A stretch of DNA of 64,000 bases from Amphiscolops sp. MND2022 (taxonomy: Eukaryota). The notes beneath the pieces are model-generated. The model saw only the letters and a list, made by a program, of their open reading frames with translations, searched no databases and had not been told where the DNA came from. A program made the translations under genes and the position numbers. The DNA is taken from assembly GCA_964187785.1 (NCBI GenBank), contig OZ076412.1, positions 16,616,001 to 16,680,000 on the forward strand, in the 5' to 3' direction. Shown piece by piece: positions 8,525 through 64,000 of this stretch. Each line of letters starts with the position of its first letter. The first letter of the stretch is position 1.

Positions 8525-9037
8525 TCATGGGTTTACCGATGCAATTGACACATAGACCATATCATCGTGGAGAACTATGTCAATGTTTGACTCGATGAAG
8601 TGATCTCTCAACATTGAATACCAAGCTGGTAGTTTGTTGACTGACCTTTCGCGATCATAGATAGGAAAGCGAAATTGTATGGTATGAGCTTGCGTGAACT
8701 TTTTTACTAGATCTGTAAGACACAAATGTAATACTTCATGCAGCATGGGATGTTTGCTGGAGGCTCTGGTGAATAACAGAAAAATGTCATTGTTCAATGG
8801 AGCATTTGGTGACATGACTAGGTGCATCTCCTTTCCAATGCCTGGTCGTAGTCTAAAGATCTCTCCTAGTCCGGATTCCCGAATGACGTAACGCGTCATC
8901 GCTGAGTAAGAAATAAGATGTACTGGACAGCACACTACCACGGAACCACCTGCTCGCAAGATATTAGTTTCGTCGTAGGTTATCCAAGGTCGATAGTTCG
9001 GCTTGAATTTAGGATGCGTTGTAAACAATTTTCGCAT
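8525..9037 (-). CDS. Accessory ORF of Gypsy 1, degenerate macrodomain-like fold
   Basis: WITYDETNIL..SVVVCCP..IFLLFTRASSKHPMLHEVLHLCLTDL..FRFPIY..LRDHFIESNIDIVLH follows the element order of TARG1-type macrodomains; compared by eye. Confidence 0.5.
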   Translation of the reverse strand: MRKLFTTHPKFKPNYRPWITYDETNILRAGGSVVVCCPVHLISYSAMTRYVIRESGLGEIFRLRPGIGKEMHLVMSPNAPLNNDIFLLFTRASSKHPMLHEVLHLCLTDLVKKFTQAHTIQFRFPIYDRERSVNKLPAWYSMLRDHFIESNIDIVLHDDMVYVSIASVNP

Positions 9038-9039
9038 GA

Positions 9040-9617
9040 AAGTGCTTTAATTGTCGTGACTTGGCGCGAGGTGTTCCAGTATAGCTTTGCGGTCTTGCCA
9101 CACTGTTCGGCGTAGTTGTCTATTTCCCATGTTCGTACAAGACCAATCGTGGACTACAGAGGATGCTTCTAGCACGGTCACGGGGTTCTCGAACGTATAA
9201 GTGTGTTTATCCAACAAGCGAATTTTGGCTTGACGAAAGAAAGTTATAGCCAGTAGCTGTAGCCAATGTTGACTAAGAAATTTTCCGCGATATATCTGCT
9301 GGATGGAAACAAATGGTGTCTTCGAACTCTACGATTGTGCGTAAATTCTCCAGACAAATCAATAGAGTTCCGGGATTCACTGGTGATGTTTCGTCTAGGG
9401 AGGTGACTAGTTGCCACCAACCAGCGGTTGGGTGATATAGATCTCCGGGAGGGGAAGTCATACCATAATGTTGCAATAGCTGGTGCGCGATGATACAGCG
9501 TACCACAGTTACTTTCGTGTCCTCTGGCTCTACTTTCCCAAACACCATCGTTGGTGTAAGTGGGGGAATAATGGCAGCTAACGTGAACTCTAATTCGCCT
9601 TGTCGTGCCATGTCCAC
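9040..9617 (-). pseudogene. Upstream accessory ORF fragment of Gypsy 1, possible second macro-like repeat
   Basis: VTVVRCIIAHQ..WWQLVTSLDETSPVNPGTLLICLENL..ICFHP, broken by a frameshift near 9273; weaker resemblance than the downstream ORF. Confidence 0.35.
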
Positions 9618-46884: not shown

Positions 46885-47086
46885 ATGTCCGATGATGACA
46901 GTCAGAAAATCATCTCAAGTCTGACCCCTGATCAAATTGCAGAGTTCAAAGAGGCCTTTGACCTTTTCGATGTGAGTGGCAATGGGGCCATCGGCTTTGA
47001 GGAGCTACAGACATGTTTGACCTCCATGGGGTTCTCCCCTGACCCCGCAGAGATCAAAGCTATGATTGACGAAGTCGACGAGTCAG
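46885..47086 (+). CDS. Calmodulin/troponin-C-like EF-hand protein, first coding exon
   Basis: MSDDD..LTPDQIAEFKEAFDLFDVSGNGAIGFEELQTCLTSMGFSPDPAEIKAMIDEVDESG; acceptor TTTCAG at 46846; donor GTCAGT at 47087 inside EF-loop 2, a position that also carries an intron in calmodulin genes. Downstream exons not found. Confidence 0.85.
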
Positions 47087-47457
47087 GTCAGTGGCAAAAT
47101 TTTATCAAAATTCATGCCTAAATTTTATCTGAACATGAATGATTCTTGCAAAATTTTGATGCATTAACCGCTGCACTGTTAAGCATCTTGAATGACGAGA
47201 GAAGTTTAGAATGAATGGATAATTGCTAAAAATCATTTTTGCATGTGTTTGTTGTTCTATTTTAATATCCAGTGAAGTGAAACAATTCTTTAAAAAGTTT
47301 TTACAGTAAGTCTAATTTTGATGTATTTTTCTCCACTCATTTTCTACCAGTTGCCATGATTTGCTTTTTGCCTCAACAAATGAAGAAACCTTTAATGATT
47401 TGCAAAGTTGTACAGTTTCTCATTATGAATTAGTTATCACTTGGAAATCATTACCAA

Positions 47458-48154
47458 TATAGCGGACAGCAAACAGGAAATGAATTTTTTAATACATGTG
47501 AGACTTCATACACGTTACATATACACATCTATATATTGAAAAATATTAACAGCGTTGCTTAATATACATTGTAACAATTGTTGTGCACATTTTACTTTTT
47601 TTAAAATATTTTACAAACAATTATCCAGGCAGTTCCAGGCAGTGTGCATTTTAAAAAAGCCTTGTGGTCGTTTCTAAAAATTCAGCTGCCTTGCAGTAAT
47701 AAATATTTTGTTGAGTCTGATTCAGCTTCCCAATTGTTCAGCCGCCCCCTTATTTCAGCTGCCCCTTATTTAAAGCTGCTCTTATTATTTTATGCGCCCA
47801 ATTCAGCTGCTCCTTTATTAACATTCATCAAAAGCCCCACTCTTACCCAGTGCAGGATTAATTATTTATTCGTTTCTTGCACCTGCAGAAGTATCTTCAG
47901 AAACCGAAAACTATCACAGCCATAACATCATCCATCAAGCCAAATGTAAGTTGCTGTGTGTTACTTAATAATTTTGGTCAGTAAATATCGTTCTTTAAAA
48001 TTGAGTTTTCATTTTCTTATAGACTTTTTTTTGTTCTTTTTTTAGAAATATCCACTAGTCACTTTTAAAAACAAAATATATCCATTTACCCCAACAATCG
48101 CCCTGCGCATCGAAACTTGAAACGAATTCAAATCTAGTAAAAAGCGATTGTTAA
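47458..48154 (+). repeat. 5' LTR (697 bp)
   Basis: Direct repeat of 59355-60051; 2 mismatches seen (GTGTG/GTTTG; AAACTT/AAAGTT). Confidence 0.97.
47946..47951 (+). promoter_or_regulatory. Splice donor GTAAGT in the LTR, preceded by AT
   Basis: Perfect consensus donor: CCAAAT|GTAAGT. Confidence 0.65.
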
Positions 48155-48156
48155 AA

Positions 48157-48174
48157 TGGTGACAAGGGTGGGAT
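48157..48174 (+). promoter_or_regulatory. Primer binding site (18 nt, tRNA-Leu-like 3' end)
   Basis: TGGTGACAAGGGTGGGAT = reverse complement of ATCCCACCCTTGTCACCA; 2 nt after the LTR. The tRNA identity is an inference. Confidence 0.85.
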
Positions 48175-48561
48175 ATTTGTAAAAAGAGAAGTTTTTTTTA
48201 CAAAAAAACAATAAAGTAACTTAGAACCCCCATCAAAACATTCTTAGTCCTAGACCCGATCCAAAAATTTTTTTTGAAATGTGCCATTTCCTGGTTCGCC
48301 AGTGTTGCCCATAAGATTCCCAATCCGGACATGGTCCGTGCCTAGTTTTCCAGCTCAATGCTGTGACTTTCCGCTTCGGCGTGTCTCAGGCTTTAAAATG
48401 GCACATTTGACCCAATGCCCTTAAGTTTTAAGAAGTTACACGGTAAGTGCTTGTCATAAAACAAACAGTAGCCAATTTTTTGTAACATTTCTATCAAAAT
48501 AGTTCCGTTTTCTTTTTGATAACCTAAATTTTATTAACCGCCGCGAGTTTTTTTTGTTGAT

Positions 48562-48831
48562 ATGCCTTGTGCTCACAATACGCATTCTCACCTACCGTTG
48601 TACGTTTTTCCCCAACGACCGCTTCGACCATCAAGTCCTCCGCCCTCTTACAGCGAAACACGTGAAAGACCGATATTCACGCCCTGTTTTTTAAGTTTTC
48701 TACTCTTGATCCTCTGTTTTGCGCTTCTCTTGACCGTTTTAGCCCTTTGTGCGATGTCGTACGAAATCAACAAGATAAATATAACTTGTAAAGCACTTCA
48801 AACCCAAAGAGTGGACTATACGTCTCTGTAG
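48562..48831 (+). CDS. Leader ORF-a, 89 aa, PPxY motif plus single transmembrane segment
   Basis: ATG start; PPPSY; FLSFLLLILCFALLLTVLALCAM; NIT sequon after the TM. Confidence 0.45.
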   Translation: MPCAHNTHSHLPLYVFPQRPLRPSSPPPSYSETRERPIFTPCFLSFLLLILCFALLLTVLALCAMSYEINKINITCKALQTQRVDYTSL

Positions 48832-48841
48832 GAGCGGCCTA

Positions 48842-49240
48842 ATGTATACTTTTAGCATACCTGTTTCCGTTTTGTCAAACACACCGCCTCAAAACTTCGT
48901 TATTCCTTGCTACTTCTGCCAAGTGAAACTTTTCAAAATTCCATTATCGCATCAACCAGAACGTCGTTTTACGGCACATGAACTGTCGATTCATTTGCGT
49001 CTTGAGGCTATCCACAATTGGCAACATCGAAACGTTTGTTCAACTTTCCCGTATGGTCGTGTTGATAACAATGCAAGTGTAAAAGCTTCCTGTGCGTCCT
49101 TTTTCCCTCAATTATCCAATATTTGGGCTTCTCATATTCAATTTCTAGCAATACACGTAACGAATCCATTCTATTTGGTCTATCCCGACTGCAAACCACC
49201 TAGTCTCAATTTTGGTCCGCTGCGAATGGATCGCATGTGA
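48842..49240 (+). CDS. Leader ORF-b, 132 aa, unknown
   Basis: ATG 10 nt after the ORF-a stop; ends just before the gag ATG; Cys/His-containing (CYFC). Confidence 0.35.
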   Translation: MYTFSIPVSVLSNTPPQNFVIPCYFCQVKLFKIPLSHQPERRFTAHELSIHLRLEAIHNWQHRNVCSTFPYGRVDNNASVKASCASFFPQLSNIWASHIQFLAIHVTNPFYLVYPDCKPPSLNFGPLRMDRM

Positions 49241-49281
49241 AACGTTCTAGACCTAACGTAGACTTTAAGCGTTCAAATACA

Positions 49282-50502
49282 ATGAGCACTCAACCAAGCA
49301 CCCCCACAACGGCCACCTCGACAGCGGTAACCAATACCACTACAACCCCAGTTACTAGTGGTGGTGCAAGTAGCTCCCAAGCACCAGCACAAGCACCTAC
49401 CGTGGGTTCTACAACTCCTAACACTAGTACAACCCCAACAGCTTCCTTTTTCACTCTGCCTGGCGGTAGACAAAACCCAACAAGTGTTCCATACATAGCC
49501 CCGCTTCCGTCATGTCTGATGCCAGAGTCTTTCACAGGAAAAGGTGATTTCGAAGATTACCTGCAACAATTTAACACAGCAGCACTTCTCTCAGGCTGGT
49601 ATTCGAACGCACACGATAACAGACCACATTATTTTGCGTTGCGATTGAGAGAAAATGCTTTGCATTTCTACACTACGTTGTCTCCATCACAACAAACTAA
49701 CTTCGATATGCTCGTTGACGCGTTCCGCCAGAATTACACAACTAATGGCGATATTCTGAAAGCAAGATTGAAAGCCGCGAAGCAGCAACCCAACCAAGAT
49801 ATTTCATCTTTCCTATGTGACGTTCGGACGCTGGCGCGTCGTGCATATCGAGATCATCCTGCTATGATTGATCCGGTAGTTCTGACGTGCTTCATTGAAG
49901 GGTTAAGCGACAAAACGCTTCGATGGGAGCTCCGAAAAGCCAAGCTAGCCACAGCGGATGATGCTTTGTCCTTGGCTATGGAGCTGAATTCGTTCCTGGA
50001 GATTGAGAACGGAAACCCCCAAGCCGCTCAAACAGTTAACCGAGTTAGTACTTCTTCTGAAGCGGAGCCATCAGCGTCCAAAATTATGGCTGATTTTGTT
50101 CGATCATTACAAACTGAACTTCAGTCGTCAACGTATCGGTCCAATAATGATTTCCATCAACGAGGAGACACAAAATCATCAAACAGAAATGATCACTCGA
50201 GATCGCAGAGTAATGATTCCAATCGGAGTGGCCAGTCAGTACGATTTCAGTCGTCACAAGGACGCGAACGACCAAATAACGCAGGCAGATCTGACAAAAC
50301 ACAAAAACAACAGTATCGCCAAGATTCCCCCCATCCCAAGAAACAAGGCAACAATAACAACACGCAAAACAATCGGAAGCCGTGCGAGCGTTGCACACGC
50401 AAAAATCATACAACGAAGGAGTGCAAAGCTTGTTTCAATTGTTTGAGAGTCGGTCATTTCCAGAATGAATGCAAGGCTCCCAAAAGGGAACATTTAAACT
50501 AG
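49282..50502 (+). CDS. gag: Gag with capsid-like core and two CCHC zinc knuckles
   Basis: PESFTGKGDFEDYLQQF..W; CERCTRKNHTTKEC and CFNCLRVGHFQNEC; first ATG at 49282. Confidence 0.95.
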   Translation: MSTQPSTPTTATSTAVTNTTTTPVTSGGASSSQAPAQAPTVGSTTPNTSTTPTASFFTLPGGRQNPTSVPYIAPLPSCLMPESFTGKGDFEDYLQQFNTAALLSGWYSNAHDNRPHYFALRLRENALHFYTTLSPSQQTNFDMLVDAFRQNYTTNGDILKARLKAAKQQPNQDISSFLCDVRTLARRAYRDHPAMIDPVVLTCFIEGLSDKTLRWELRKAKLATADDALSLAMELNSFLEIENGNPQAAQTVNRVSTSSEAEPSASKIMADFVRSLQTELQSSTYRSNNDFHQRGDTKSSNRNDHSRSQSNDSNRSGQSVRFQSSQGRERPNNAGRSDKTQKQQYRQDSPHPKKQGNNNNTQNNRKPCERCTRKNHTTKECKACFNCLRVGHFQNECKAPKREHLN

Positions 50503-53500
50503 AAATGTCTACGCTAGCGGGTCAGAGCGCAGACAAGACCACAAACCGAGGCCCGCAAATTCAGACTCTTAACTCTGTGGTGGATCACAGAAGTGTATTC
50601 GTCCAATTATCCATTTTTAATACGGTGATTGAGGCTGTGTGTGATAGTGGAGCAAGTGTGTCTTGCCTGAGTTCTGATGCATTTGGGAAATTGAAGAACG
50701 GGAAGAAATTAGAGCTAAACCCGTCAGACACGAAGCTAGTAGCAGCCAACAAACAACCTATAGTAACACGCGGCATTGTGCAACTACCTTTGCAAATCGG
50801 TCCGAGACATTACGAACATTCGTTTCACGTTCTGGAGCAAGCAGAAACTGACTGTCTACTCGGCTTAGACTTCCTCAAAACTCATAAATGCGACCCGTTG
50901 TTTTCCCAAGATATTCTGCGTCTGGATGAAAAGACGACAGTCCCCCTGTATCATCGTCAGCTCACAGATGCTAAGACAACTGTGTTCAGGGTGGTGGTGT
51001 CCGAGACAGTTTCGGTACCACCACGACATACAATGATTGTGCCAGCGCACATCAAGGATTGGAAACGCCCATTGAATGAGGGTGTAGCAATTTTCGAGCC
51101 GCACGAACGGTTCGATGGCTCAAAAGAAGCAGTGGCACCAAGTATTTTGTTCAACTTTGCTGAGGAAAACATCCCGGTGACGATCGAAAATTCTGGAGAA
51201 GAGCCACTGATCTTGTATGAGAAAACAACTTTGGGTACTTCAGAAGCAATCCCTGATTTACCCATACAAAACGTTGTAACCGAAACAAAAAGCTTGAAGT
51301 CTAAAATAGACGAAAAGGACGAATCGTACGATTTGAAAAATGTAGTGGATGGAGTTGATCCGGAAATTCCATTCAAAACAAAACAGAAATTCGCAGAACT
51401 TGTTTACGAATTCGAAGATGTGTTTTCGCAAAACCAATGGGACATTCGTCGTTGCGAAGCTACAACACACAAAATAAACGTATACCCCGGATCAAAGCCG
51501 ATTAAAATTCCGAATCGCAGAATGCCCCTCCACTATAAACAGGATCTCCAAGAGAAATTAGACGCGTTCCTGGACAAGAGGTTAATAGCTCCTTGTCACA
51601 GCCCTTACAGTGCACCCGCCATGCTAGTCCCGAAGAAAAACGGAAAACTCCGCCTCGTCATTGACTACAGACAATTGAATAGTCAAACAATCAAGTCTTG
51701 TTGGCCAATCCCTTCGATTGAAGAAATTTTTGACACTCTAGATGGAAGTTCAGTCTTTTCCACTATAGACATGAGTTGGGGATTTTATCAGCTGCCCTTA
51801 GACGAATCAAGTCAAGATTATACTGCTTTCAGCACACCTTTTGGTTCCTTCAAATGGCTTGTAATGCCGATGGGACTCACAAACAGTCCACCGACGTTCC
51901 AAAATTTAATGGAAATCGTTTTGGCGAAACTTATCTGGAAAACAACAGTCCCCTACCTTGACGATTGTATCATCTTTGCCGCTTCCCCGGAGGAACACTT
52001 AGAACGAGTCAGGGAAGTTCTAGGCAGATTTAGACAAGCCAACTTGAAAATAAACCCCCTAAAATGCGAGTTTTTCCGCACCAAAGTCCACTTCTTGGGC
52101 CATGTCATCAGCAAAGAAGGCCTTCAAGTTGATCCCACAAAAATTGCAGCCGTTAAAGAGTTTCCGGTCCCAATTAACCAGACCCAGGTGAAGTCATTCT
52201 TGGGCCTTTGTTCCTACTATAGACGTTACATCAAAAATTTCGCTGAAATCGCTCGTCCCTTGCATAAAGCGAGTGAAACCAACTCGCCTTTTAAGTGGAC
52301 AACTGAGGCAGAGCAAGCGTTTGAAGATCTAAAAGCACGACTCCTCACAACACCAATTTTAGCCTTTCCAACAATGGAAGATCCTTTCATCCTCTACACG
52401 GATGCCAGCCAACTAGCAATGGGAGCCGTTCTAGCCCAAGTACAAAATGGCCAGGAACGTGCTATTTGCTATGCATCAAAGGCATTCTCCAAATCCCAAT
52501 CAAAGTACTCAGCGACGAAACGAGAACTTCTCGCAATGGTCCATTTCACTCGGTACTTCCGACATTACCTACTCGGTAGAAAATTCAAAATTGTCACAGA
52601 CCACAGTGCACTTCGCTGGTTACACAATTTCAAGGACCCCGACGGTCTCATTGCACGTTGGATTGAAAAACTAGCAGCTTTTGATTACGAAGTGCAACAT
52701 AGACCAGGCAAATCCATCGGACATGCCGACAGTCTGTCCAGAATACCAACTGAATCCGTCCAATTAACGCAAGAATGCCGAACAGGAGTCCCAGGTGCAA
52801 CAAAGACGAAGAATTGCAACAATGACGAGGAATGGCCCAACGCACAATCTAACTACAGTATTCACCTATTGCCTAGAGATACAGCATCAATACCACTCCA
52901 AGCTATCATTGAACTCAAGGAAAAAGCTAATAATCACAGCAAAGTTAAAACCGGCGAACTTCTCGAACACGAGCAACCACAAGAAAAGCCTCTACAAGAA
53001 GAACTAGTCATTACAGAAACAGGCATTGTCAAGAATCGCGAGGTGAAGGGCGATTTGTTCAGTTCTTCGGAGTCCCTAGCTCACTGTATCTCAGCTGATT
53101 TTAAAATGAGTTCTGGAATAGCCCGATCATTCAAAAGGAAGTTCCCAGCACAGTATCCAGAGGACTTATCAAAGCAAACTGTGCCACTTTGGGTACAACC
53201 ATTACCTGGTGACGGCCGTTTCCTGTATCACTTGCTGACTAAGGAACGTTACTACCAAAAGCCAACATATACTTCGCTTCGAGCTTCTCTGGAACACATG
53301 CGTAGCCATGCTGAAACGAACGACGTCCTAAAGATTAGTATGCCTCAAATAGGCTGTGGAAATGATAAACTTGACTGGGATTTGGTTCGCAGACTCATCC
53401 GAGAAGTCTTTGACGGATCCAATGTATGTATAACTATTTATTTGCCTCCATCAATTTCACTTGAGAGCGAAGGCCCACCCGTAGAAACCGCTAAAGATAA

Positions 53501-55409
53501 TGAACCAGTGCATGCGGACATTGATGTCCGCAATGCTCAAGATGAGGACGAGGCCCTGAAGATCGTAAAAGAATGGGTTCGCAGGGGTCGTGTGCCGCGG
53601 AATAACGACCTACAAGGAAGTCCCGAGTTAGCATGGAAGCTGTACAATCAATTCCACAGTTTATATCTGGCCAATGACGTCCTTTGTCGACGGTATGAAC
53701 CAGTTGGAAGTGAACTTCCGTACCTACAGCAAATTGTTCCCCGTACCTTGGTAGAACATATCCTAACAAACTTGCACTCTTCCGCTACCAGTGGACATCT
53801 AGGTTTAGCCAAGGTGATGGAGAAAGTTCGACAGCGTTTTTGGTGGCCTGGTTTCAAAGAGGATATCAAGCTTTTCATAAAACGTTGTTCCGAATGTCAG
53901 CGACGCTCGGATCCTCCTAAAACACATCGTCATTCCCTTGTAGAGTGGAAAGCTAGTTATCCCTTTCACCACATTGGAATCGATTTCATGGGCCCATTGC
54001 CGGCCTCGAATGGAAACAAAGTAATTCTGTTGATCGGGGATCATTTCACAAAATGGTATGAAGCAATTCCCTTGCCAGATCAGCAAGCTACAACAACGGC
54101 TACCGCTCTTATCGAACATTGGATCTGTCGATTTGGTTGTCCCTACAGCATACATAGTGATCAAGGACGTAATTTTGAGTCCAAGTTGTTCCAGACGCTC
54201 ATGACAAGCCTTCACATTGACAAAACAAGAACAACTGCTTTTAGGCCCCAGTCTAATGCAGTGATCGAGCGAATGAATCGAACAATCCAGAACATGCTAG
54301 CAAAATGCGTAAACGCTGAACAAAGTAACTGGTCCCAACAGTTACCCTACGTAATGATGGCCTACCGGTCATCTGTACATGAATCAACCGGATATTCGCC
54401 TCAATTTCTTGTTCATGGGCGAGAAATTTCCTTGCCAATCGATTTGATGCACCCTGCACCTGAAGCCGAAAAACCAATGTCGCCTACGGATTTTGTATAC
54501 AATCGAAAATTGGCCTTCCAAAGAGCTTTCGAACTAGTGCGAGCCAACATTAATAAAAACCAAAAACGTCGCAACGCCATTTACAACGAGAAGATCCATG
54601 GTCCTACCTACGAACAGGGACAGAAAGTGTTGCTCCACACACCAGTGGTCCCAGTTGGCCAAACAACCAAGTTCCACAACCCATGGCGTGGTCCATATGT
54701 GATACTTGACTGTTTCAATGAGGTCACATACAAGATAAGAGAATTGTCTACGTCCAAAGAGCTGATCGTTCACTACGATAGGTTGAAACCTTTTTGCGAA
54801 AAACCAGCTACTTCAAATGTGCCTACTGGAAATACTAGCTTAACCCAGCCCACAAAACCAGTTCACTCCAATGTCCCAACACGGAATAACGACTTGAACA
54901 CCACACCACCTGAAACCTCGCATCGATGCTGCATGCATTTTCAACAGCCACCACTGCAGCCTATGAATCTCCACAGCCCTGCTCACCTAAACCACCAGAC
55001 TACTCCAACGCCACAATCAACTAGCCACAATGCTCAGTCACCGACCCAAACCCGAACTCCCGCTTTCCTCTCCGGTAATCAGCATTCCCAATCTTTTCAA
55101 TCTCCTGGCGTTCAGACGATGGCCACTCCCGCAACTCCTTCAGTCGACAACCCTAGTTATCGTCAAGCACCAGCATCCCATTCACCTTTGTCAAACGAAT
55201 CCCGAAACATCGTTGAAAACGCTGCTGTTCAGTTTCGAGATATGATAAACAGACCATACAATCTCCGCGCAAGTACACGCACACAGCGATTGGCGGAACC
55301 CCTGTGTAATTCCTCAATACCTTCTGAACTAACCGATTTCAACTCGCCGCCACTGCACAGCATGCCACATTCCACCAAACGTTCCAAAAACTATACAAAA
55401 AAGAAATAA
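50469..55409 (+). CDS. pol: Pol: protease, dUTPase-like remnant, RT, RNase H, macrodomain, integrase
   Basis: CDSGAS; YLDD; YTDASQLAMGAVL; GDLF..LAHCISADF..LLTKE..MPQIGCGND; H..H..CSEC, IDFMGP, HSDQG, IERMNRT, WRGPY. 1646 codons with no stop. The dUTPase-like call (VPPRHTMIV region) is weak. Confidence 0.97.
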   Translation: MQGSQKGTFKLEMSTLAGQSADKTTNRGPQIQTLNSVVDHRSVFVQLSIFNTVIEAVCDSGASVSCLSSDAFGKLKNGKKLELNPSDTKLVAANKQPIVTRGIVQLPLQIGPRHYEHSFHVLEQAETDCLLGLDFLKTHKCDPLFSQDILRLDEKTTVPLYHRQLTDAKTTVFRVVVSETVSVPPRHTMIVPAHIKDWKRPLNEGVAIFEPHERFDGSKEAVAPSILFNFAEENIPVTIENSGEEPLILYEKTTLGTSEAIPDLPIQNVVTETKSLKSKIDEKDESYDLKNVVDGVDPEIPFKTKQKFAELVYEFEDVFSQNQWDIRRCEATTHKINVYPGSKPIKIPNRRMPLHYKQDLQEKLDAFLDKRLIAPCHSPYSAPAMLVPKKNGKLRLVIDYRQLNSQTIKSCWPIPSIEEIFDTLDGSSVFSTIDMSWGFYQLPLDESSQDYTAFSTPFGSFKWLVMPMGLTNSPPTFQNLMEIVLAKLIWKTTVPYLDDCIIFAASPEEHLERVREVLGRFRQANLKINPLKCEFFRTKVHFLGHVISKEGLQVDPTKIAAVKEFPVPINQTQVKSFLGLCSYYRRYIKNFAEIARPLHKASETNSPFKWTTEAEQAFEDLKARLLTTPILAFPTMEDPFILYTDASQLAMGAVLAQVQNGQERAICYASKAFSKSQSKYSATKRELLAMVHFTRYFRHYLLGRKFKIVTDHSALRWLHNFKDPDGLIARWIEKLAAFDYEVQHRPGKSIGHADSLSRIPTESVQLTQECRTGVPGATKTKNCNNDEEWPNAQSNYSIHLLPRDTASIPLQAIIELKEKANNHSKVKTGELLEHEQPQEKPLQEELVITETGIVKNREVKGDLFSSSESLAHCISADFKMSSGIARSFKRKFPAQYPEDLSKQTVPLWVQPLPGDGRFLYHLLTKERYYQKPTYTSLRASLEHMRSHAETNDVLKISMPQIGCGNDKLDWDLVRRLIREVFDGSNVCITIYLPPSISLESEGPPVETAKDNEPVHADIDVRNAQDEDEALKIVKEWVRRGRVPRNNDLQGSPELAWKLYNQFHSLYLANDVLCRRYEPVGSELPYLQQIVPRTLVEHILTNLHSSATSGHLGLAKVMEKVRQRFWWPGFKEDIKLFIKRCSECQRRSDPPKTHRHSLVEWKASYPFHHIGIDFMGPLPASNGNKVILLIGDHFTKWYEAIPLPDQQATTTATALIEHWICRFGCPYSIHSDQGRNFESKLFQTLMTSLHIDKTRTTAFRPQSNAVIERMNRTIQNMLAKCVNAEQSNWSQQLPYVMMAYRSSVHESTGYSPQFLVHGREISLPIDLMHPAPEAEKPMSPTDFVYNRKLAFQRAFELVRANINKNQKRRNAIYNEKIHGPTYEQGQKVLLHTPVVPVGQTTKFHNPWRGPYVILDCFNEVTYKIRELSTSKELIVHYDRLKPFCEKPATSNVPTGNTSLTQPTKPVHSNVPTRNNDLNTTPPETSHRCCMHFQQPPLQPMNLHSPAHLNHQTTPTPQSTSHNAQSPTQTRTPAFLSGNQHSQSFQSPGVQTMATPATPSVDNPSYRQAPASHSPLSNESRNIVENAAVQFRDMINRPYNLRASTRTQRLAEPLCNSSIPSELTDFNSPPLHSMPHSTKRSKNYTKKK
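50493..50540 (+). promoter_or_regulatory. -1 ribosomal frameshift signal
   Basis: T TTA AAC heptamer directly before the gag TAG; pol is in the -1 frame; stem GTCTACGCT/AGCGCAGAC begins 7 nt downstream. Confidence 0.85.
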
Positions 55410-55489
55410 CTTCAAATAGTTGCATTTTATTTCTCTCTCCAGGTCATTTCCCATCACCAATGGCCTAACAAGGCTCCTCTGTTTTTCAG

Positions 55490-57836
55490 GATTTCCTACT
55501 TTCCAAACTCTCAACATTTCTGGTTTCTCTTTCTGTTCGTCCGTTGGTCGGTCCTGATCTTTGCGGATGTGCAGTTCACAACACACCTCAACGATGACCT
55601 GGAAAAACCCGTATTCAAGAAAGGTGCAGCGTTTGTGTTCAAATACCAAGCTGTTACCTCGGAGAGCGAAAGCAAAGTCCGCGTGTTCTCTCCCTTCCCC
55701 AAGATGCCTCTAATCAACATTACCAATGCCATTAACATGATCAATGCCTTCCAGACAGCCCCTCGAAGCATCGGAGGTATGTACATCAATACAAACTGCA
55801 AGTTTACAGACGTTAATGACACCTATGACCTCCTCCTGCAACAACTTGTGACAAGAGTCAATTTCCTGCAAACAGAGTTGGCAGCAGCTCAACAAGAGGA
55901 AGACACTCTTCTGGAAGTTGTGAATTCTTTCATTCCACCAGCTGTTAGACAATCTGATGACATCGCACGACCACGTCGAGCAATTGCCGCTATTGCTGCA
56001 ATCGCAGCAGGTGCCGGAATGGTCTTGGGTGAACCAATCAAAGACGCCGCTTGTAGTGCGCTTTCTATATTTAACCTCTGTCACACCAATGAAGATCTGA
56101 GTCGCGACGTGGAACGCATAATGAGCACACAGCAAGAAATTGTTGATACACTGCAGCGTGTTCAAACTCGAAACGACAAGAATTTCTTCCTTCTAGGAAA
56201 CGAGATTAAACAGACCCAGGAAAGTGTCCAGAAACTAAAAGAAAGTGTCGGTCTCCGCTTCCAACAAATGGAGTTTTACCTAGTTAATGCTACTCGCTAC
56301 TTGGCTGCGACTAGCCTTGAGTGTGATAGAGTGATTATTCGTCACCTTAGCCTTCAGCAATTCTTGCGAAATTACGTCTATCAGCTAGGGACACTTTACA
56401 CTCATCTCAAGTCGTACCGTGCAGCGTTTTACGCTTACCGCATTTCGCTCTACTCCACCATTTCCTCGTTAGCTAGTGGCTACATCACACCTCAGTTTCT
56501 TCTGCCTCAACAAGTGGCGCAAATTGTCAAAGACTTAGCAGATGACGAAGTAAAGCGAGGCACCAAACTGTCCCCAGCTATTCGACCTGGTTTTGAGGCA
56601 ATATACTATGAGATACAATTAGTACTCGAAGTAACTTTGATACCACGTGGTATATCTGTCATTCTTGGGATCCCAATGAATTCAAAGTCGTCGACGTTTG
56701 ACATTTACCATGCCACGCCTCTGTATCAGCCCAACAATGACCAGAAGACTGCGTCGCTCTTCAATTTTGCGAACCCTTTTTTGGCCGTATCTACTGACAA
56801 TAGTAGATTTGCAGAACTCGGTGCTAATACGCTGCAGCAATGTTCGGGTAACAATCGTATCAAATTATGTAGAAAAGGCTTCTCGACAACAACCGATGAA
56901 ACTCTTCTTTGCTTAGGATCCTTGTTCTATAACTACGATGTTCCCGCCTTACGCAATTGCGAAGTCCGCGCAGTACTTTTACCCGACGCTCCTCAGGCAT
57001 TTTATTTGGCGGATGGAATGTACCACGTCATATCGCGGTCTCCCACCCTCAAATTCAAAAACGATAGCCAAATTGACGGCCTTTCTATCTCTACTATCAC
57101 CTGTCAGGCGTGTGTCATACGCCCTAGCTGTTCGAGTACACTGTCTTTCAACCAGGGTGAACTGGTTCTTCACCCTGACATGGATTTTTGTGAGACCCGA
57201 CCGGAGCCTTTTCTTGCGTCGATTGAGCTGACACCGTCTTTGAATCAAGTCTTCGCGCATGTACCCGCCATTGGTAGCGCCGAATTTCAGGCATATTCTA
57301 CTAGTGAAGCTCGTCAGTCAGTTCTTGGCAGTCTACGAATGGAACTAGCCGAACTACCTGACGTCCAACACATGTCGCCGGAGACTCTAGATCAACTGAC
57401 AGAGCCAATCGCTAAGTATTATTCTTCGATCTCGCCGGCCACATCAGCGGCTTTACAGTCATATTTACCCACCCGTACTGCTTTTTTACTTTCGTCATTG
57501 TCCATTACAATGTCTATTTTAACATTTTCTATAAGTTTTACTTTGTTTAGACGTCATTGGCAGCGTCTTTTTACCAATCCTCAACGCTTTTTCCGGGCTA
57601 CTTCCGGTAGATTCATTAATATAGTCGAATCAATTACCGCGGAGTATGATTTGACCAATTCTCCATTTTTGTATTTGACGGACGCTGAATTCCGCGCACT
57701 GATTTTGCTGGCTCGCGAAACCATTCGTCAAGCTGAACCGAAACCATCTAATTACACTGCACCCAACGCCCCTACACTTCCACCACGTGTTTATCCTAAT
57801 ATTAGTGCGCCTACTTATGAGTCTACTTCGACATGA
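55490..57836 (+). CDS. env: Env, class I F-type fusion glycoprotein (predicted 782 aa after splicing)
   Basis: Signal-like HFWFLFLFVRWSVLIFA; furin site RPRR (55968-55979) then AIAAIAAIAAGAGMVLG; heptad region; ITPQFLLP motif; Cys-rich ectodomain; TM AFLLSSLSITMSILTFSISFTLF; tail with YPNI. Confidence 0.9.
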
Positions 57837-57908
57837 TTTAATTGCTTAGCACATTTCTGTCTCACTGTCAATTTCAGCTTCTTTATCAACTACTTAGGAT
57901 TTCCCTTC

Positions 57909-58195
57909 CTAGATGCTTTCCTACGCAGCTAGTGCCTGTTTTACACGTTTCCGTGTTCCGTTACTTTCCCTTAGGTTGTCTTTTCCTTCCTAGTTGCTTC
58001 ACTACGCAACTAGCGCCTGTATTGATACACGTTTCCGTGGTGAATCTCTTTTCGCTAAGCTGTCTTTTTCTCCTAGTTGCTTCGCTACGCAACTAGTGCC
58101 TCACAACACACGTTTCCGTGTCCGCAATTAAGTTTTTTCCTAATTGTTTAAACAATTAGTGTCTAGCAGATGCGTTTCCGCATCCTAAGTAGGAT
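57909..58195 (+). repeat. Three ~82-bp tandem units with embedded hairpins plus a 20-bp palindrome
   Basis: CTAGTTGC-N8-GCAACTAG at 57990 and 58073 (variant at 57909); CACG-TTTC-CGTG in each unit; CTAATTGTTTAAACAATTAG at 58140-58159. Confidence 0.85.
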
Positions 58196-58242
58196 TTCCG
58201 TACAAAGTGTAATCGGTGCAATCAGTTTTTTTGTTGTTTCAG

Positions 58243-59314
58243 GTTCCAGTTTCCAGCAGCTCCAGTTCCAGCGCCCTCCCTCCTCAGCAGCGGTCGCGTG
58301 CAGCCTCTGGCAGAGGGATATGTAGTCCGCTTGTTGGACAAAGACGATTATCGTATCAAGAGAATAAACCCCGCTACACAAACTGTTGTGCTACAAAAAA
58401 TTAATTCAAGTAATCGTTGCTTTGCTCGACCAGCTACGGAAATCTGGCTTCCTCCTCCAAGCAGTAACAGCCTGAGCGTGGAAGTGGACTGCCCTCCCCC
58501 TCCAGCAATCTGTGATTGCTCGCCAGTACCCCCTAAATTAATAGTGGACACCTGCGATGTAGCAGTGGATGCGTCCCTCGACGCTGACGACAGCATGGAA
58601 CTCTTAGTATCAGAGTTTTCTTCGGTTGGCGAACTCAATAAGGGTTTTGAAGAAGCCCGTGCAGCAGCTAATAAGGCTCGCATCGAGTGTGAGCATACGT
58701 TCGACCTCCTTTGCGAGGAAATGACTCTTCGGAAGGCAAAGGAAAAGGAAATTCATGAAGCAAAAATCGAGCTCGCTGGTTTACAAACCAACATTGCTTC
58801 TCAAGTCGTCGCCCTCGCCAAAAAAGACAGTGAAATAGCCGCCCTGAAGAAGCGCCTCAGTGCCCTCAGCGACGAAAACAGCTCTTTGCTGCAACACAGT
58901 CTCCAGCAAAGCGAAGAACTCTCTAACCTTAAACTAGCCGCCAACAGGGTTTCAGATGCCCATCTAACCACTGACATGCTAATTTATCAACTTTCCACAT
59001 ATACTCCTGAACTCGATTTCGCAGATGAGAACATATTCTTTGATATACTTGGCCTACCACCCACCGCCGATGTCGAAAAGATCAATCGTCATGCTAGACA
59101 TCTTTTAAGACTCGTACACCCCGACAAGAACCCTTCCATCCCAGCCGAAGTGTCCCAACTGGTCCCCTGCCTTAAGGAAGCGAAAAACGTCCTCACGGAT
59201 CCCCGGCTCAACAAAGTATACCAGTGTTGCGGTATGACAGGTGTTCGCCGGGCCCGTCGTAACTTACGGACCTGCATGGATTGTGACTCCCACATGTCGG
59301 ACTGGTTCGAGTAA
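58243..59314 (+). CDS. ORF4: coiled-coil plus J-domain (DnaJ-like) protein with Cys-rich tail (predicted 357 aa after splicing)
   Basis: FFDILGLPPTADVEKINRHARHLLRLVHPDKNP..LKEAKNVLTDPRLNKVY; heptad-rich middle; CC..CMDC tail; acceptor TTTTTGTTGTTTCAG at 58242. Confidence 0.88.
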
Positions 59315-59340
59315 TTTGGCTGGCGGGGACGCAGCCTTTC

Positions 59341-59350
59341 ACGGGGGAGG
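59341..59350 (+). promoter_or_regulatory. Polypurine tract
   Basis: ACGGGGGAGG, 4 nt before the 3' LTR. Confidence 0.8.
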
Positions 59351-59354
59351 TTAG

Positions 59355-60051
59355 TATAGCGGACAGCAAACAGGAAATGAATTTTTTAATACATGTGAGA
59401 CTTCATACACGTTACATATACACATCTATATATTGAAAAATATTAACAGCGTTGCTTAATATACATTGTAACAATTGTTGTGCACATTTTACTTTTTTTA
59501 AAATATTTTACAAACAATTATCCAGGCAGTTCCAGGCAGTGTGCATTTTAAAAAAGCCTTGTGGTCGTTTCTAAAAATTCAGCTGCCTTGCAGTAATAAA
59601 TATTTTGTTGAGTCTGATTCAGCTTCCCAATTGTTCAGCCGCCCCCTTATTTCAGCTGCCCCTTATTTAAAGCTGCTCTTATTATTTTATGCGCCCAATT
59701 CAGCTGCTCCTTTATTAACATTCATCAAAAGCCCCACTCTTACCCAGTGCAGGATTAATTATTTATTCGTTTCTTGCACCTGCAGAAGTATCTTCAGAAA
59801 CCGAAAACTATCACAGCCATAACATCATCCATCAAGCCAAATGTAAGTTGCTGTTTGTTACTTAATAATTTTGGTCAGTAAATATCGTTCTTTAAAATTG
59901 AGTTTTCATTTTCTTATAGACTTTTTTTTGTTCTTTTTTTAGAAATATCCACTAGTCACTTTTAAAAACAAAATATATCCATTTACCCCAACAATCGCCC
60001 TGCGCATCGAAAGTTGAAACGAATTCAAATCTAGTAAAAAGCGATTGTTAA
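59355..60051 (+). repeat. 3' LTR (697 bp)
   Basis: Near-identical to 47458-48154; followed by TSD ACCAA. Confidence 0.97.
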
Positions 60052-60084
60052 ACCAAACTTAGCTTCTGCTCAAAGTTCAATCCA

Positions 60085-60793
60085 TTATTTTCTTCGGATA
60101 CTATCGTTTCTGGCAGCATTTACGAAATCAACCAGTTTTATAACCAAAAAGATTAGCATTGATATAAATATCAGACTCAGTAGCATAAGCTTAACGTCAA
60201 CCACAGTCCGTTTTGCTTTCTCAGAAGCTCCGTTAACTGGTATAGTTTGTAATGGCAACGATAATTGCATGTCATTCCACCAAAAACATGCGTTTGGCGG
60301 GTACCCCATTTTCTTGAACAGCTCATATGGATCAGCCCCTCCTGCGTTGTACTTCAAAATTTCCAGCACATCTGTTTCTCGCACAAATTTTGGACAATCC
60401 GGAAGCTGGTTTCTAAGTTCGTCCAGCTGGAAAAAATAATCAGCCAATTTTAGCTGGTAAGATTTGACGTCTTTATCACCCGCAAACCATTGGGGTCCCT
60501 TGTACAATAAATCATGTCCCCAGTTACTCCACATATCTGTATAAGGGGTTCCAATTTGCAATTCAATCATTTTATTGCCGACCGATTCTTTTACAAGCAA
60601 GATCAGATGAATGCGTCTGTATCCAATCTCTGTGTATTTGCCGGCTCCGGGACACATTCCATAGCATTTGGTAGTATTGACCTCAAAGTGGGCTGAGTCA
60701 TTTGAAACCAAGTCTTTCAGTCTCAGCGCTTCGTCAACTGTTTGACACGTCAGCCTCATACCAATAATGTCAGTTAAATCCGTCAGTCGCACG
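60085..60793 (-). CDS. Terminal exon of a RelA/SpoT (p)ppGpp-synthetase-domain protein with C-terminal membrane anchor
   Basis: DIIGMRLTC, GYRRIHLIL, IELQIGT, MWSNWGHDLLYKG in canonical order; TTTCAG acceptor at 60799-60794; hydrophobic LMLLSLIFISMLIFLVIKLV near the C-terminus. Confidence 0.85.
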
Positions 60794-61959
60794 CTGAAAC
60801 ATAATCACTATAGATAACGTTGTAACTTGAAAGTGACCCACGCCAATTTTTCTAAACTTCTGTCAATCAAAAGCTAGTTTCATTTGATACTTCAAACTTT
60901 TTTTTAATTTTTCGAAGAAGTAAATTTCCGAATAAATTGTCAATAGATCCGCATCAGAACTATTACTAAAACTCCTGATGGACTGGCTGCCAAATATAGA
61001 ATGAAGCTTTCATGCATCTTGTGAAAAGTCGGATACTCAAAGGAAATATAAATGACTGAAATTTTCCGTGAACGTTTCGTACAATCATTATAAAAGCAAC
61101 AGGCAACCTTCAAAAACGTGTTTTTGTATTAATTCGGATGAAAAGCTACAGCGGAGAACTATATAGATAGAAAGCAATTCATCTGCAATTGTATTTTCTC
61201 AATTTCTTCGAAGCACTTAAAAAAGTTTTTATAAAGTGATTGTACTCAGCATTTTGGTACCTTTGGTAAAAGAAGGTCAGGTCAACTTCAAGTCTTTCAT
61301 AAGTCGTACAACAAGAAATGACCAATGATGCAACTTTCGAATTTGAAAAAGAATTTTTACACTGGAAACAATCACGAGACTTGAGTTAGAACTTTATGTT
61401 CCAAAGAAGTCGCATACCCTTGCACACAAAGGTGAAACTCGTTTATTGAACTGAAAGTAATTCAAAGGGGACCCTTTAGTGTTTTTTCGAACTTTGTAAG
61501 CATAGAAAATATTTATTTTAGCACGGGACTTGAACCCACGTGCATGCAGTGGAACTAACTCACCAATGTGAGAAGTCCGCGTTATCAGCTAGTTCAAGTG
61601 GAAACTTTCCACCAGTGCTTCTAGTAAGGATTGGCTGAAACTGGGGAGAAAAAGGTGGAAAAATGTTCCAGTAATAAAACTGAAGGAAAACTATAAATCA
61701 CAACATTGGTTGTAGCTGATTATGATTCTGTAATTCAGATATATTTAATCGATTTGACCCACTAGATATTAATGTGTGACTGTTATACGATGGTTCCCTT
61801 TCGAATGAATAAAAAATTGAACAGCCAATAGAAATTGTTTTGTAACAACATCATGTTGTAATATAGAAAATATAGAAAAAAATATAGAAATAACAATGTA
61901 ACGCTGACGAAACGCAAATGCAAAAACAAACCTTAAAAAAACACATTTGACTGCAATTA

Positions 61960-64000
61960 ATGCTGACAGAACATTCAAATAAAAACTTTAAAAAACGTGT
62001 GGTAGAGGGGTTGACTTTTCTGTATAATAATATAAGATCAGTATCTGCAAATTTAGAAGATCTTGAAATATTGGTTGCACAAACAAAGCCGTCCGTAATC
62101 GCATTAACCGAAACATGGTGGAAAAACGAAAATGAAGCAGGACTGTATTGTCTCGAAGGATACCAAAGACCTTTCGCTAGCACCAGAAACCGCAAACGAG
62201 GTGGAGGTGTAGCAATTTATGTTACATCGGACCTGGAAGCTGAATTACTTCACACGGATGAAGCCTACGAGTCATTATCTGTAAAAATTAGTGACTTCAA
62301 AAAGAAAAAGAAAATAATAGTTTCTTGTTTCTATTGTGAACCGTCGAGGAATAGAAGTCAGTATCTGGACCATGTTGAAGAAGTTTTGGATAAAAATGGT
62401 GAAGGTATGCAGATAGCTTGTGGAGACTTCAATATTGATTTGTTAAACGAAAACCTTGCAGCACGGATAACGTTAGAAAATTTGATGACAGCCCAAGGGT
62501 TGGAATTGGTTAGCTTGCGACAACCTACAAGAGAAACTGCTACATCTAGTACTTGCATAGACTCCATATACAGCAATATTCCGGTGCAACTAACGCAGAT
62601 TAAAAAAACAACATTCTCTGACCATTACAGCTTAGAACTGTCTTTCGAAATTTTTTATGAAATTGCGGAAAACATCTTTGAATATCGATCACTCAAGAAA
62701 TTAGAAGACTCTTTTTACTGTGAAAAATTCCTTTTCTTCTTGAATCATTCGTTGGGTAAAATTAATGAACAAGATTCAGATGCCGAATCATATCTAGAAG
62801 AGATCGCGCATGTAATCAAAGATTCAACTGATAAATATTTCCCAACCAAGCAAGTGAAACGCCATGAACCCAAAAAGTCTTGGATAACAAATCGTATTAA
62901 GAGGCACATAGCAAATAGAGATAAACATTATCATTTATGGTTAAAAACAAAATCATCTGTTGATTACGAGAAGTACAGGAAAAAAAGAAATGAAGTCAAT
63001 ATGGAAATTAAAAACGCAAAGCGGAATGAAGTTCAATCTAGAATTGACCGCAATAATTCGAGAGAATTTTTCAGATACATAAAAAAGGTGAAAGGCACTT
63101 TGAATCAAGTAGCAAAATGTGATTTATCTGCAGAAGATTTTAATAATTATTTCTTAACTGCTGCTGATACCTCAGACACAATTTTAACTCATCGTTTTAA
63201 AAGTCAGCAGGTTGAACAACCGCAATCAATATTCATGCGCCCAGTTACTGAGGATGAAGTTTCGAAACACATTTCCACATTGAAAAACAAAAAATCTGTT
63301 GGCATGGATTGCATTGAGGTCGCCGTATTAAAGAAAGCTTCCCGAATTGTTAGTCCTTATCTAAAAACTGCTTTCAACAATTGCATATATGCAGGAGTGT
63401 TTCCTCAAAGTATGAAAATTGCTAAAGTAATACCAATTTTTAAAGCTGGTGCAACAAGTTTAGCTTCCAATTACAGGCCGATTTCTATTCTGGGTAATTT
63501 ATCAAAGCTCTTCGAGAAGGTAATACACAGAAGATTGATGAACTATTTTGAAAAATTTGGAATTCTTTCGGAAAATCAATATGGGTTCAGAAAAAAGAAA
63601 GATTCTATCCAAGCCGCAACATCACTTTTTAAAGAAATAGAAGCAAATTGGAGGTCCAAAATTAAAACGAACTCTGTTTTTATTGATTTCAGGAAAGCTT
63701 TTGATGCAGTTGATCACAGCGTTCTGTTGAATAAATTGAATCGAATCGGTATCAGAGGAGTTTCTCATAAACTCCTAACGAGTTACTTAACGAATAGGTG
63801 TCAGTATGTGAAAATTGAGGATAAATGCTCATCCATGAAATTAATAAAACGTGGAGTCCCACAGGGATCTATACTTGGCCCTCTCTTATTTCTTGTTTAT
63901 ATTAATGATTTGGGCGCCGATGAAAAATGGCAGAGTAAAATAATAAAGTATGCGGATGATACAGTTATGATCGAAAAGCTAAATACAAAGTCTGATGATA
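61960..64000 (+). CDS. LINE ORF2 (APE endonuclease plus RT), L2/CR1-like, open to the window end
   Basis: NIRS, LTETW, RGGGVAIY, GDFNID, TCIDSI, SDH; NYRPISIL, QYGFR, DFRKAFD, GVPQGSILGP, YADD; no stop seen on manual translation. Confidence 0.95.
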   Translation, partial: MLTEHSNKNFKKRVVEGLTFLYNNIRSVSANLEDLEILVAQTKPSVIALTETWWKNENEAGLYCLEGYQRPFASTRNRKRGGGVAIYVTSDLEAELLHTDEAYESLSVKISDFKKKKKIIVSCFYCEPSRNRSQYLDHVEEVLDKNGEGMQIACGDFNIDLLNENLAARITLENLMTAQGLELVSLRQPTRETATSSTCIDSIYSNIPVQLTQIKKTTFSDHYSLELSFEIFYEIAENIFEYRSLKKLEDSFYCEKFLFFLNHSLGKINEQDSDAESYLEEIAHVIKDSTDKYFPTKQVKRHEPKKSWITNRIKRHIANRDKHYHLWLKTKSSVDYEKYRKKRNEVNMEIKNAKRNEVQSRIDRNNSREFFRYIKKVKGTLNQVAKCDLSAEDFNNYFLTAADTSDTILTHRFKSQQVEQPQSIFMRPVTEDEVSKHISTLKNKKSVGMDCIEVAVLKKASRIVSPYLKTAFNNCIYAGVFPQSMKIAKVIPIFKAGATSLASNYRPISILGNLSKLFEKVIHRRLMNYFEKFGILSENQYGFRKKKDSIQAATSLFKEIEANWRSKIKTNSVFIDFRKAFDAVDHSVLLNKLNRIGIRGVSHKLLTSYLTNRCQYVKIEDKCSSMKLIKRGVPQGSILGPLLFLVYINDLGADEKWQSKIIKYADDTVMIEKLNTKSDD

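Follow-up and report, generated by a model that had tools for sequence, protein, structure and literature searches.

The window analysed here, a stretch of 64,000 nucleotides from the genome of Amphiscolops sp. MND2022, contains a complete Ty3/gypsy LTR retroelement (47458-60052) that carries gag, pol, env and a fourth open reading frame, ORF4, which encodes a J-domain protein and is under purifying selection. From its sequence we consider it likely that ORF4 is a working Hsp70-directed accessory protein. The original prediction of a J-domain gene at this position is upheld insofar as the gene is real, borne by the element and selected; it missed the predicted splice-made start codon and a second lineage of J-gene-bearing elements (family B), both described below.

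An env-bearing Ty3/gypsy element with a fourth reading frame

Paired LTRs, a target-site duplication, a primer-binding site and a polypurine tract are all present in the window element, and Pfam places the domains of gag and pol in PR-RT-RH-IN order, all of which are features of env-bearing Ty3/gypsy elements. The parts of the element are as follows (all on the plus strand; a slash marks a predicted splice break).

47454-47457: left target-site duplication CCAA, with the right copy at 60053-60056
47458-48155: 5' LTR, 698 bp, 2 mismatches against the 3' LTR
47944-47951: predicted splice donor AT/GTAAGT in the LTR, break at 47945/47946, supplying AT for ORF4 and env
48157-48174: primer-binding site complementary to the 3' end of host tRNA-Leu(TAG), by match to the host tRNA gene
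49204-50502: gag ORF, ATG at 49282, with Retrotrans_gag and a zinc knuckle (Pfam)
50469-55409: pol ORF with protease, RT, RNase H, macrodomain and integrase, in Ty3/gypsy order
about 53040-53450: OARD1/TARG1-like macrodomain, inserted between the RNase H and integrase domains of pol (PDB sequence match)
55410-57836: env ORF, F-type by homology; the AG of its predicted phase 2 acceptor ends at 55489
58226-58243: predicted ORF4 splice acceptor, T-rich tract and CAG/G, phase 2, AG at 58241-58242
58243-59314: ORF4 coding exon, predicted to give a 357-aa protein after AT/G splicing
about 59343-59350: polypurine tract, between ORF4 and the 3' LTR
59355-60052: 3' LTR, 698 bp, paired with the 5' LTR

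For the window env, neither an env match in Pfam nor a sequence match in the PDB was obtained; we class it, and with it the family to which the element belongs (family A), as F-type because a homologous env on contig L049 matches Baculo_F above the cut-off (E 6.4e-7). The macrodomain in pol matches OARD1/TARG1 among PDB sequences with E 2e-34, where Pfam Macro reaches E 0.005 only; macro ORFs have been noted in fish ERVs (PMC4977317). ORF4 lies between the end of env at 57836 and the polypurine tract, in a frame (58193-59314) that is open for 373 codons from stop to stop, so that the gene is indeed intact, inside the element and ahead of the polypurine tract, as had been proposed.

Several other features of the window deserve brief mention. 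Between env and ORF4 (57900-58190) lie imperfect repeats of ~84 bp (family D14), a possible RNA signal. A calmodulin-like EF-hand exon (46885-47086) ends in a GT donor; the insertion point of the element lies some 370 bp downstream of this exon, in the same orientation and apparently inside its intron. On the minus strand, an ORF with a RelA_SpoT domain (60085-60804, E 4.8e-10) ends 32 bp from the 3' LTR; it has 8 matches in the genome, several of them clustered on C6, and is unusual for an animal. By sequence inspection, 61850-64000 is an endonuclease/RT-like non-LTR element, and positions 1-46000 hold several decayed fragments of LTR elements.

Barrel, coiled coil and J domain

The protein predicted for ORF4 can be divided into five parts, all again on the plus strand.

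58271-58432: N-terminal small beta-barrel, SH3-like (KOW/Tudor class), from structure prediction and fold comparison
58463-58582: Pro-rich linker with a conserved CxC, low confidence in the AlphaFold model
58583-58996: long helix, predicted coiled coil, differing in length among subfamilies
59036-59257: J domain, HPD at 59117-59125, by Pfam and fold match
59225-59284: [C/H]C-x14-CxxC, a probable zinc site judging by its ligand pattern

A DnaJ profile search had been set beforehand as a test of the original prediction. Pfam DnaJ (PF00226) matches ORF4 residues 282-343 with E 3.1e-10 and 40.4 bits, against a cut-off of 27.8, and matches 17 of 21 aligned members of the ORF4 family at E<=0.01; the other four have no DnaJ match, and several subfamilies lie below Pfam detection. 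The AlphaFold model, built on a 21-sequence alignment (mean pLDDT 78, pTM 0.36), runs from a six-strand beta domain through a Pro-rich linker, which is disordered, into a single helix of 138 residues and then the helices of a J domain, and so agrees with what had been read from the sequence: a small beta-rich module at the N-terminus, a long coiled coil, and an HPD flanked by J-domain helices. Model and sequence together place the HPD between helices II and III of a four-helix J fold. The top Foldseek rows for the model are all J domains, with TM 0.85 and rmsd 1.7 A to a DnaK-bound J domain; in a Foldseek search of the PDB neither the full model nor the barrel model has a match at E<=0.001. 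When the family profile is compared with PDB sequences, solved J domains come first, the best being DNAJC5/CSP (E 1.5e-9), with DNAJB8, DNAJC10 and DNAJA trailing by about 100-500-fold in E. What ORF4 shares with cellular class C J proteins such as DNAJC5 is the J domain with its HPD. Since that domain is C-terminal and DnaJ_C and DnaJ zinc-finger domains are absent (no Pfam match to either in window ORF4 or the 21 aligned members), ORF4 is by architecture a class C J protein, not class A or B.

Folded alone, the beta domain is modelled as an SH3-like barrel (best Z 7.2, rmsd 5.7, 66 aligned), and it carries conserved basic residues. Spt5/NusG KOW, Tudor and chromo domains tie as its matches at Z 6-7, within 1 Z unit; the tie speaks for the fold but for no particular function, so that the barrel says nothing about the client; Pfam finds no match to it in window ORF4 or the 21 aligned members. 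At the other end of the protein, Y-x-[C/H]-C-G is followed by CxxC ~14 residues on, and a zinc site is suggested by the first ligand, which switches between Cys and His across subfamilies. The CC..CxxC motif that had been described as a tail is therefore present, but its CC is not part of a tail: the YQCCG of ORF4 aligns with YDKYG of DNAJC5, which puts CC within helix IV of the J domain.

Does the J domain still work on Hsp70? Over the 13 residues before the HPD, members of the ORF4 family have a mean of 2.5 K/R (n=15) compared with 4.2 in host J domains (n=14); helix II of the window copy has 4 K/R. Given this less basic helix II and the subfamilies below Pfam detection, stimulation of Hsp70 could be weak. 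One might go further and propose that the J fold is used without Hsp70, as a scaffold for the zinc site or as a protein-binding surface, with the HPD kept for structural reasons. The loss of basic residues from helix II would fit such a use, as would putative zinc ligands built into helix IV. The HPD, however, sits in an exposed loop of the J domain. It is retained by 30 of 32 distinct open ORF4 frames, some as low as 25-35% identical (these frames were picked for being open and are thus not an unbiased sample), and by 9 of 10 aligned ORFs of family B, while neighbouring residues vary. We regard this proposal as quite improbable.

An atypical helix II could belong to a decoy that ties up or misdirects Hsc70 and thereby shifts stress signalling or chaperone-dependent small-RNA loading to the benefit of the element, with no specific client. 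There is a precedent in Rki of phage RB43, which treats DnaK in this way: it stabilises sigma32 and differs from a generic co-chaperone (PMC3486835). Yet the selected barrel, the CxC of the linker and the coiled coil exceed what a decoy would need and suggest targeting, which makes a decoy improbable in our view.

A start codon predicted to be made by splicing

The first in-frame ATG of ORF4 is codon 135. Conservation of ORF4 starts just past the T-rich acceptor that ends at 58242, and the start originally given for the gene, 58243, is the first base after its AG. Ranking acceptors with a T-tract score, we find that in 28 of 32 frames the best-scoring one has phase 2 and a G right after it; L023, L028, L044 and L049 depart from this. 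On the donor side, AT/GT[AT]AGT is found in the LTR behind ORF4 at 28 of 31 loci, compared with 0.04 expected from shuffles, even in LTRs that have no blastn similarity to that of the window. Both donor and acceptor counts are inflated by related copies, with about seven distinct LTR types sharing the donor, and the donor pattern was broadened from GTAAGT to GT[AT]AGT after two LTRs had been seen; a stricter scan for AT/GTAAGT gives 10 of 20 loci.

Joined together, the AT of the donor and the G of the acceptor form a predicted ATG start codon for ORF4, and we strongly infer from these patterns that the ORF4 start is made by splicing from the LTR donor into a subgenomic RNA. At the env acceptor (55489) both the phase and the G agree with those of ORF4, and a phase 2 acceptor is found at 10 of 10 other env starts. 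Three of these ten copies (L022, L024 and L033) have A after the acceptor and an in-frame Met within 4-6 codons, as if the near Met compensated for the lost splice-made ATG. Such an arrangement is known from Drosophila gypsy, where the env start codon consists of a donor AT joined to an acceptor G; in that element the donor belongs to ORF1 and is used for env, whereas in the window element it is in the LTR and apparently serves both env and ORF4 (PMC8096092).

If LTR-donor splicing makes the ORF4 start codon, then ORF4 and env have their leader in common. Being expressed along with env would suit a role tied to the particle just as well as a host-facing one, and it is here that a different function must be considered: the barrel might bind Gag or genomic RNA, so that Hsc70 folds, assembles, moves or uncoats the capsid. 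In addition to the donor shared with env, this idea can draw on the conserved basic residues of the barrel and on the nucleic-acid-binding Spt5/NusG KOW domains among its matches, on the company that ORF4 keeps with env (see below), and on the J proteins carried by large DNA viruses and baculoviruses. One of the latter, baculovirus Ac51, has a role in nucleocapsid egress. Against it, a Gag-specific co-factor might be expected not to outpace the structural genes in divergence, which ORF4 does, and most described env-bearing gypsy elements have three ORFs only (PMC13524379). We therefore judge a role as particle chaperone to be unlikely, if still a serious contender.

Copies, selection and relatives

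A search of the 1.07-Gb host assembly returns at least 135 ORF4 matches at E<=0.001, a minimum that should not be read as the number of copies. Among the 19 loci that are >=78% identical to ORF4, 12 have neither a stop nor a split frame, so that the gene is indeed open in other copies, and 7 have one or the other. ORF4 and env travel together: env is directly upstream on the same strand in 18 of 20 chosen diverged ORF4 loci and, conversely, ORF4 lies within 2.5 kb downstream of env at 48 of 53 env loci (70 env matches merged into loci; 58 of the 858 candidates were scored, and 56 ORF4 coordinates served for the comparison). At the remaining env loci ORF4 is 17-30 kb away (three) or there is none on that strand (two). 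Of 15 loci examined for paired LTRs, 14 have them, with 98.1-99.9% identity, and 13 of these also show a perfect 4-bp duplication; because LTR pairs with target duplications are near-identical we conclude that several subfamilies moved recently. There are also tandem arrays of ORF4 or env-ORF4 fragments, mostly with stops (C12:47298629-47302951, C8:55925473-55933250, C5:40871705-40877551 and C12:56781747-56786488).

ORF4 is under purifying selection: dN/dS is 0.11-0.31 in all 59 pairs (of 496) with dS between 0.08 and 1.5, keeping in mind that pairs are non-independent. At the same time ORF4 diverges faster than env and pol of the same copies; in L037, for example, ORF4 is 31% identical, env 59% and pol 55%. 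Identity is also uneven along the gene. The J-coding segment (58943-59242 in the window) is 74-76% identical to L006 and L009, which match at 94-100% just upstream, but reaches 88-96% identity with L013 and L014, although their distal coil is only 58-65% identical. Judging from this mosaic, the J segment is exchanged between ORF4 sublineages like a cassette.

Relatives of ORF4 occur in other assemblies (P0104, P0012 and P0255), with best host-genome matches of only about 27%, 50% and 52%, and a P0104-type ORF4 on contig L049 is located directly behind an F-type env and ahead of a purine tract. A profile search of 1.84 billion proteins gives 144 matches at E<=1e-10; nearly all of the 150 matches listed are family members or fragments, along with a few unrelated J or coiled-coil proteins, and no cellular protein with the architecture of ORF4 is seen among the matches inspected. 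Searching with the barrel profile yields 58 proteins of 146-402 aa. All 12 examined have the barrel-coil-J layout and none is a fused form of it, the latter in a word-limited, weak search. Scans of IMG/VR with two ORF4 relatives return no match, and the ESM Atlas returns low-score unnamed clusters or none.

Could ORF4 simply be a non-functional fragment of a host gene that was captured and is carried passively? Near its 5' end it lacks an ATG, and in 7 of the 19 closest loci the frame is stopped or split, as one might expect of a passenger. The observed dN/dS and the conserved signals for a splice-made start largely refute this explanation, however; the position kept in other assemblies also speaks against it, as does the failure to see the same architecture in inspected cellular proteins. 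We consider passive carriage very improbable indeed.

A second lineage with J genes

A genome scan with PF00226 also revealed pairs of J domains about 1.1 kb apart, which led to a second Ty3/gypsy lineage, family B (L087-L099 and L106-L125). Its env is gB-type, with a Monjiviricetes_fusion (PF24664) match in 5 of 5 fragments, and is followed by two tandem ORFs (for example L108:7483-8202 and 8540-9283, plus strand). In both of these ORFs a short N-domain is followed by a coiled coil and, at the C-terminus, a J domain with HPD (DnaJ E 1e-17 and 1e-13), and both have their own ATG behind a pyrimidine tract. Family B pol is about 40-50% identical to that of family A, its LTR pairs are about 95-97% identical, the start of its primer site corresponds to the same tRNA-Leu, and no macrodomain was seen in it. 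At L120:605-4723, minus strand, there is a 1373-codon open frame with a J domain at its start and no other Pfam match.

In the integrase tree, families A (13 rows) and B (11 rows) are separate with 92% support each. Full-length profiles of the two J proteins align over coil and J domain only (probability 96.9). For the N-domains, hhalign gives a probability of 0.5, within the range of 40 column-shuffled controls (maximum 1.8), and neither N-domain HMM found the other family. The J-domain tree, which included 14 host J domains and not the full host set, recovers A and B as one clade each (100/99 and 100/97), whereas a joint A+B clade is neither supported nor rejected (p-AU 0.525). Phylogeny against host DNAJ proteins, which had been proposed as a way to find the donor, resolved none among these 14. 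The J genes of the two families may thus go back either to one old gain that survived a change of envelope or to the same solution arisen twice.

Comparison with known systems

Both families resemble the env-carrying Ty3/gypsy 'ancient errantiviruses' in LTR-gag-pol-env-LTR organisation, PR-RT-RH-IN order, F-type (A) or gB-type (B) env, tRNA-Leu primer and recent multi-copy spread. They differ in the ORFs added, a fourth in family A and a fourth and fifth in family B, all with a J domain, and in the TARG1-like macrodomain that family A adds to pol (PMC13524379). The main text of that paper mentions no J domain, chaperone or accessory gene, and its 7 supplements no DnaJ or J domain. Captured 3' ORFs other than env are known from LTR elements of bdelloid rotifers, where they are common to lineages and have spliced messages. 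These ORF3s sit at the 3' end of the element, as ORF4 does, but they encode GDSL esterases, DEDDy nucleases, TM or coiled-coil proteins and not a J protein (PMC5408684); 'DnaJ' and 'chaperone' occur 0 times in the text of that paper. Neither 'transpos' nor 'retro' occurs in the text of a survey that covers about 280,000 J proteins (PMC10410713). In keeping with the original prediction, which knew of no standard ORF of this kind in LTR elements, we found no J-domain gene described in a retroelement among the titles and abstract openings listed by literature searches; Repbase-type annotations, subscription papers and bioRxiv supplements were outside the scope of this search, and a prior mention is possible there.

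Parasite J proteins as such are familiar. Phage RB43 Rki, baculovirus BJDP/Ac51 and giant-virus DnaJ are structural matches to ORF4 in BFVD, although these matches span about 60-100 columns, as expected if only the J domain is matched (TM by query about 0.2), with no barrel-coil-J among them. Polyomavirus T antigens, too, have a virus-encoded J domain, which recruits Hsp70 onto a host complex (PMC7356129). Theirs is N-terminal and in a DNA virus, whereas that of ORF4 is C-terminal and in a retroelement, and we see no other domain in common.

A possible function for ORF4

J domains deliver Hsp70 to a client that is picked by the rest of the protein. We take the DNAJ and Hsp70 set of the host to be metazoan-looking, with cytosolic Hsc70 genes present (family labels assigned by us). 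ORF4, which has no signal peptide and no membrane anchor, should then meet cytosolic or nuclear Hsc70. As an accessory gene of an env-bearing, errantivirus-like Ty3/gypsy family, it would act as a class C J-protein adaptor for host Hsc70: the SH3-like barrel, perhaps together with the zinc site, would grip the client, the coiled coil would dimerise the protein and space its ends, and the J domain would trigger ATP hydrolysis by Hsc70 on the gripped client. The most likely client would be a host restriction or silencing complex, dismantled much as SV40 T antigen dismantles Rb-E2F.

At a rough probability of 0.45, we favour the reading that the ORF4 adaptor brings Hsc70 to such a host complex, for four reasons: ORF4 outpaces env and pol in divergence; its J segment appears to be exchanged between sublineages; pol carries a second captured host domain, the OARD1/TARG1-like macrodomain; and viral J domains act on host complexes (PMC7356129, PMC3486835). 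Fast divergence can also be read as relaxed constraint. More tentatively still, the barrel-coil-J genes may form a kind of retroelement accessory gene that has not been described before. Located behind env, they would recruit Hsp70 as a counter-defence; they would have been retained, or acquired on two occasions, in gypsy lineages whose envelopes are unrelated, duplicated in one of these lineages, swapped as a cassette among sublineages and given a splice-made start, and Hsc70 would dismantle a silencing or restriction complex.

Env-bearing gypsy elements of invertebrates are usually described as having gag, pol and env only. The two lineages considered here instead resemble complex retroviruses in that both carry accessory genes that are under selection and predicted to be spliced. 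DNA viruses and phages are known to encode J domains; in retroelements such domains are apparently undescribed. A J domain offers a single activity to assay and, through a change in HPD, a clean null, so that the use or subversion of Hsp70 by a retroelement becomes directly testable, and the barrel may serve as bait for the host factor that the element must overcome.
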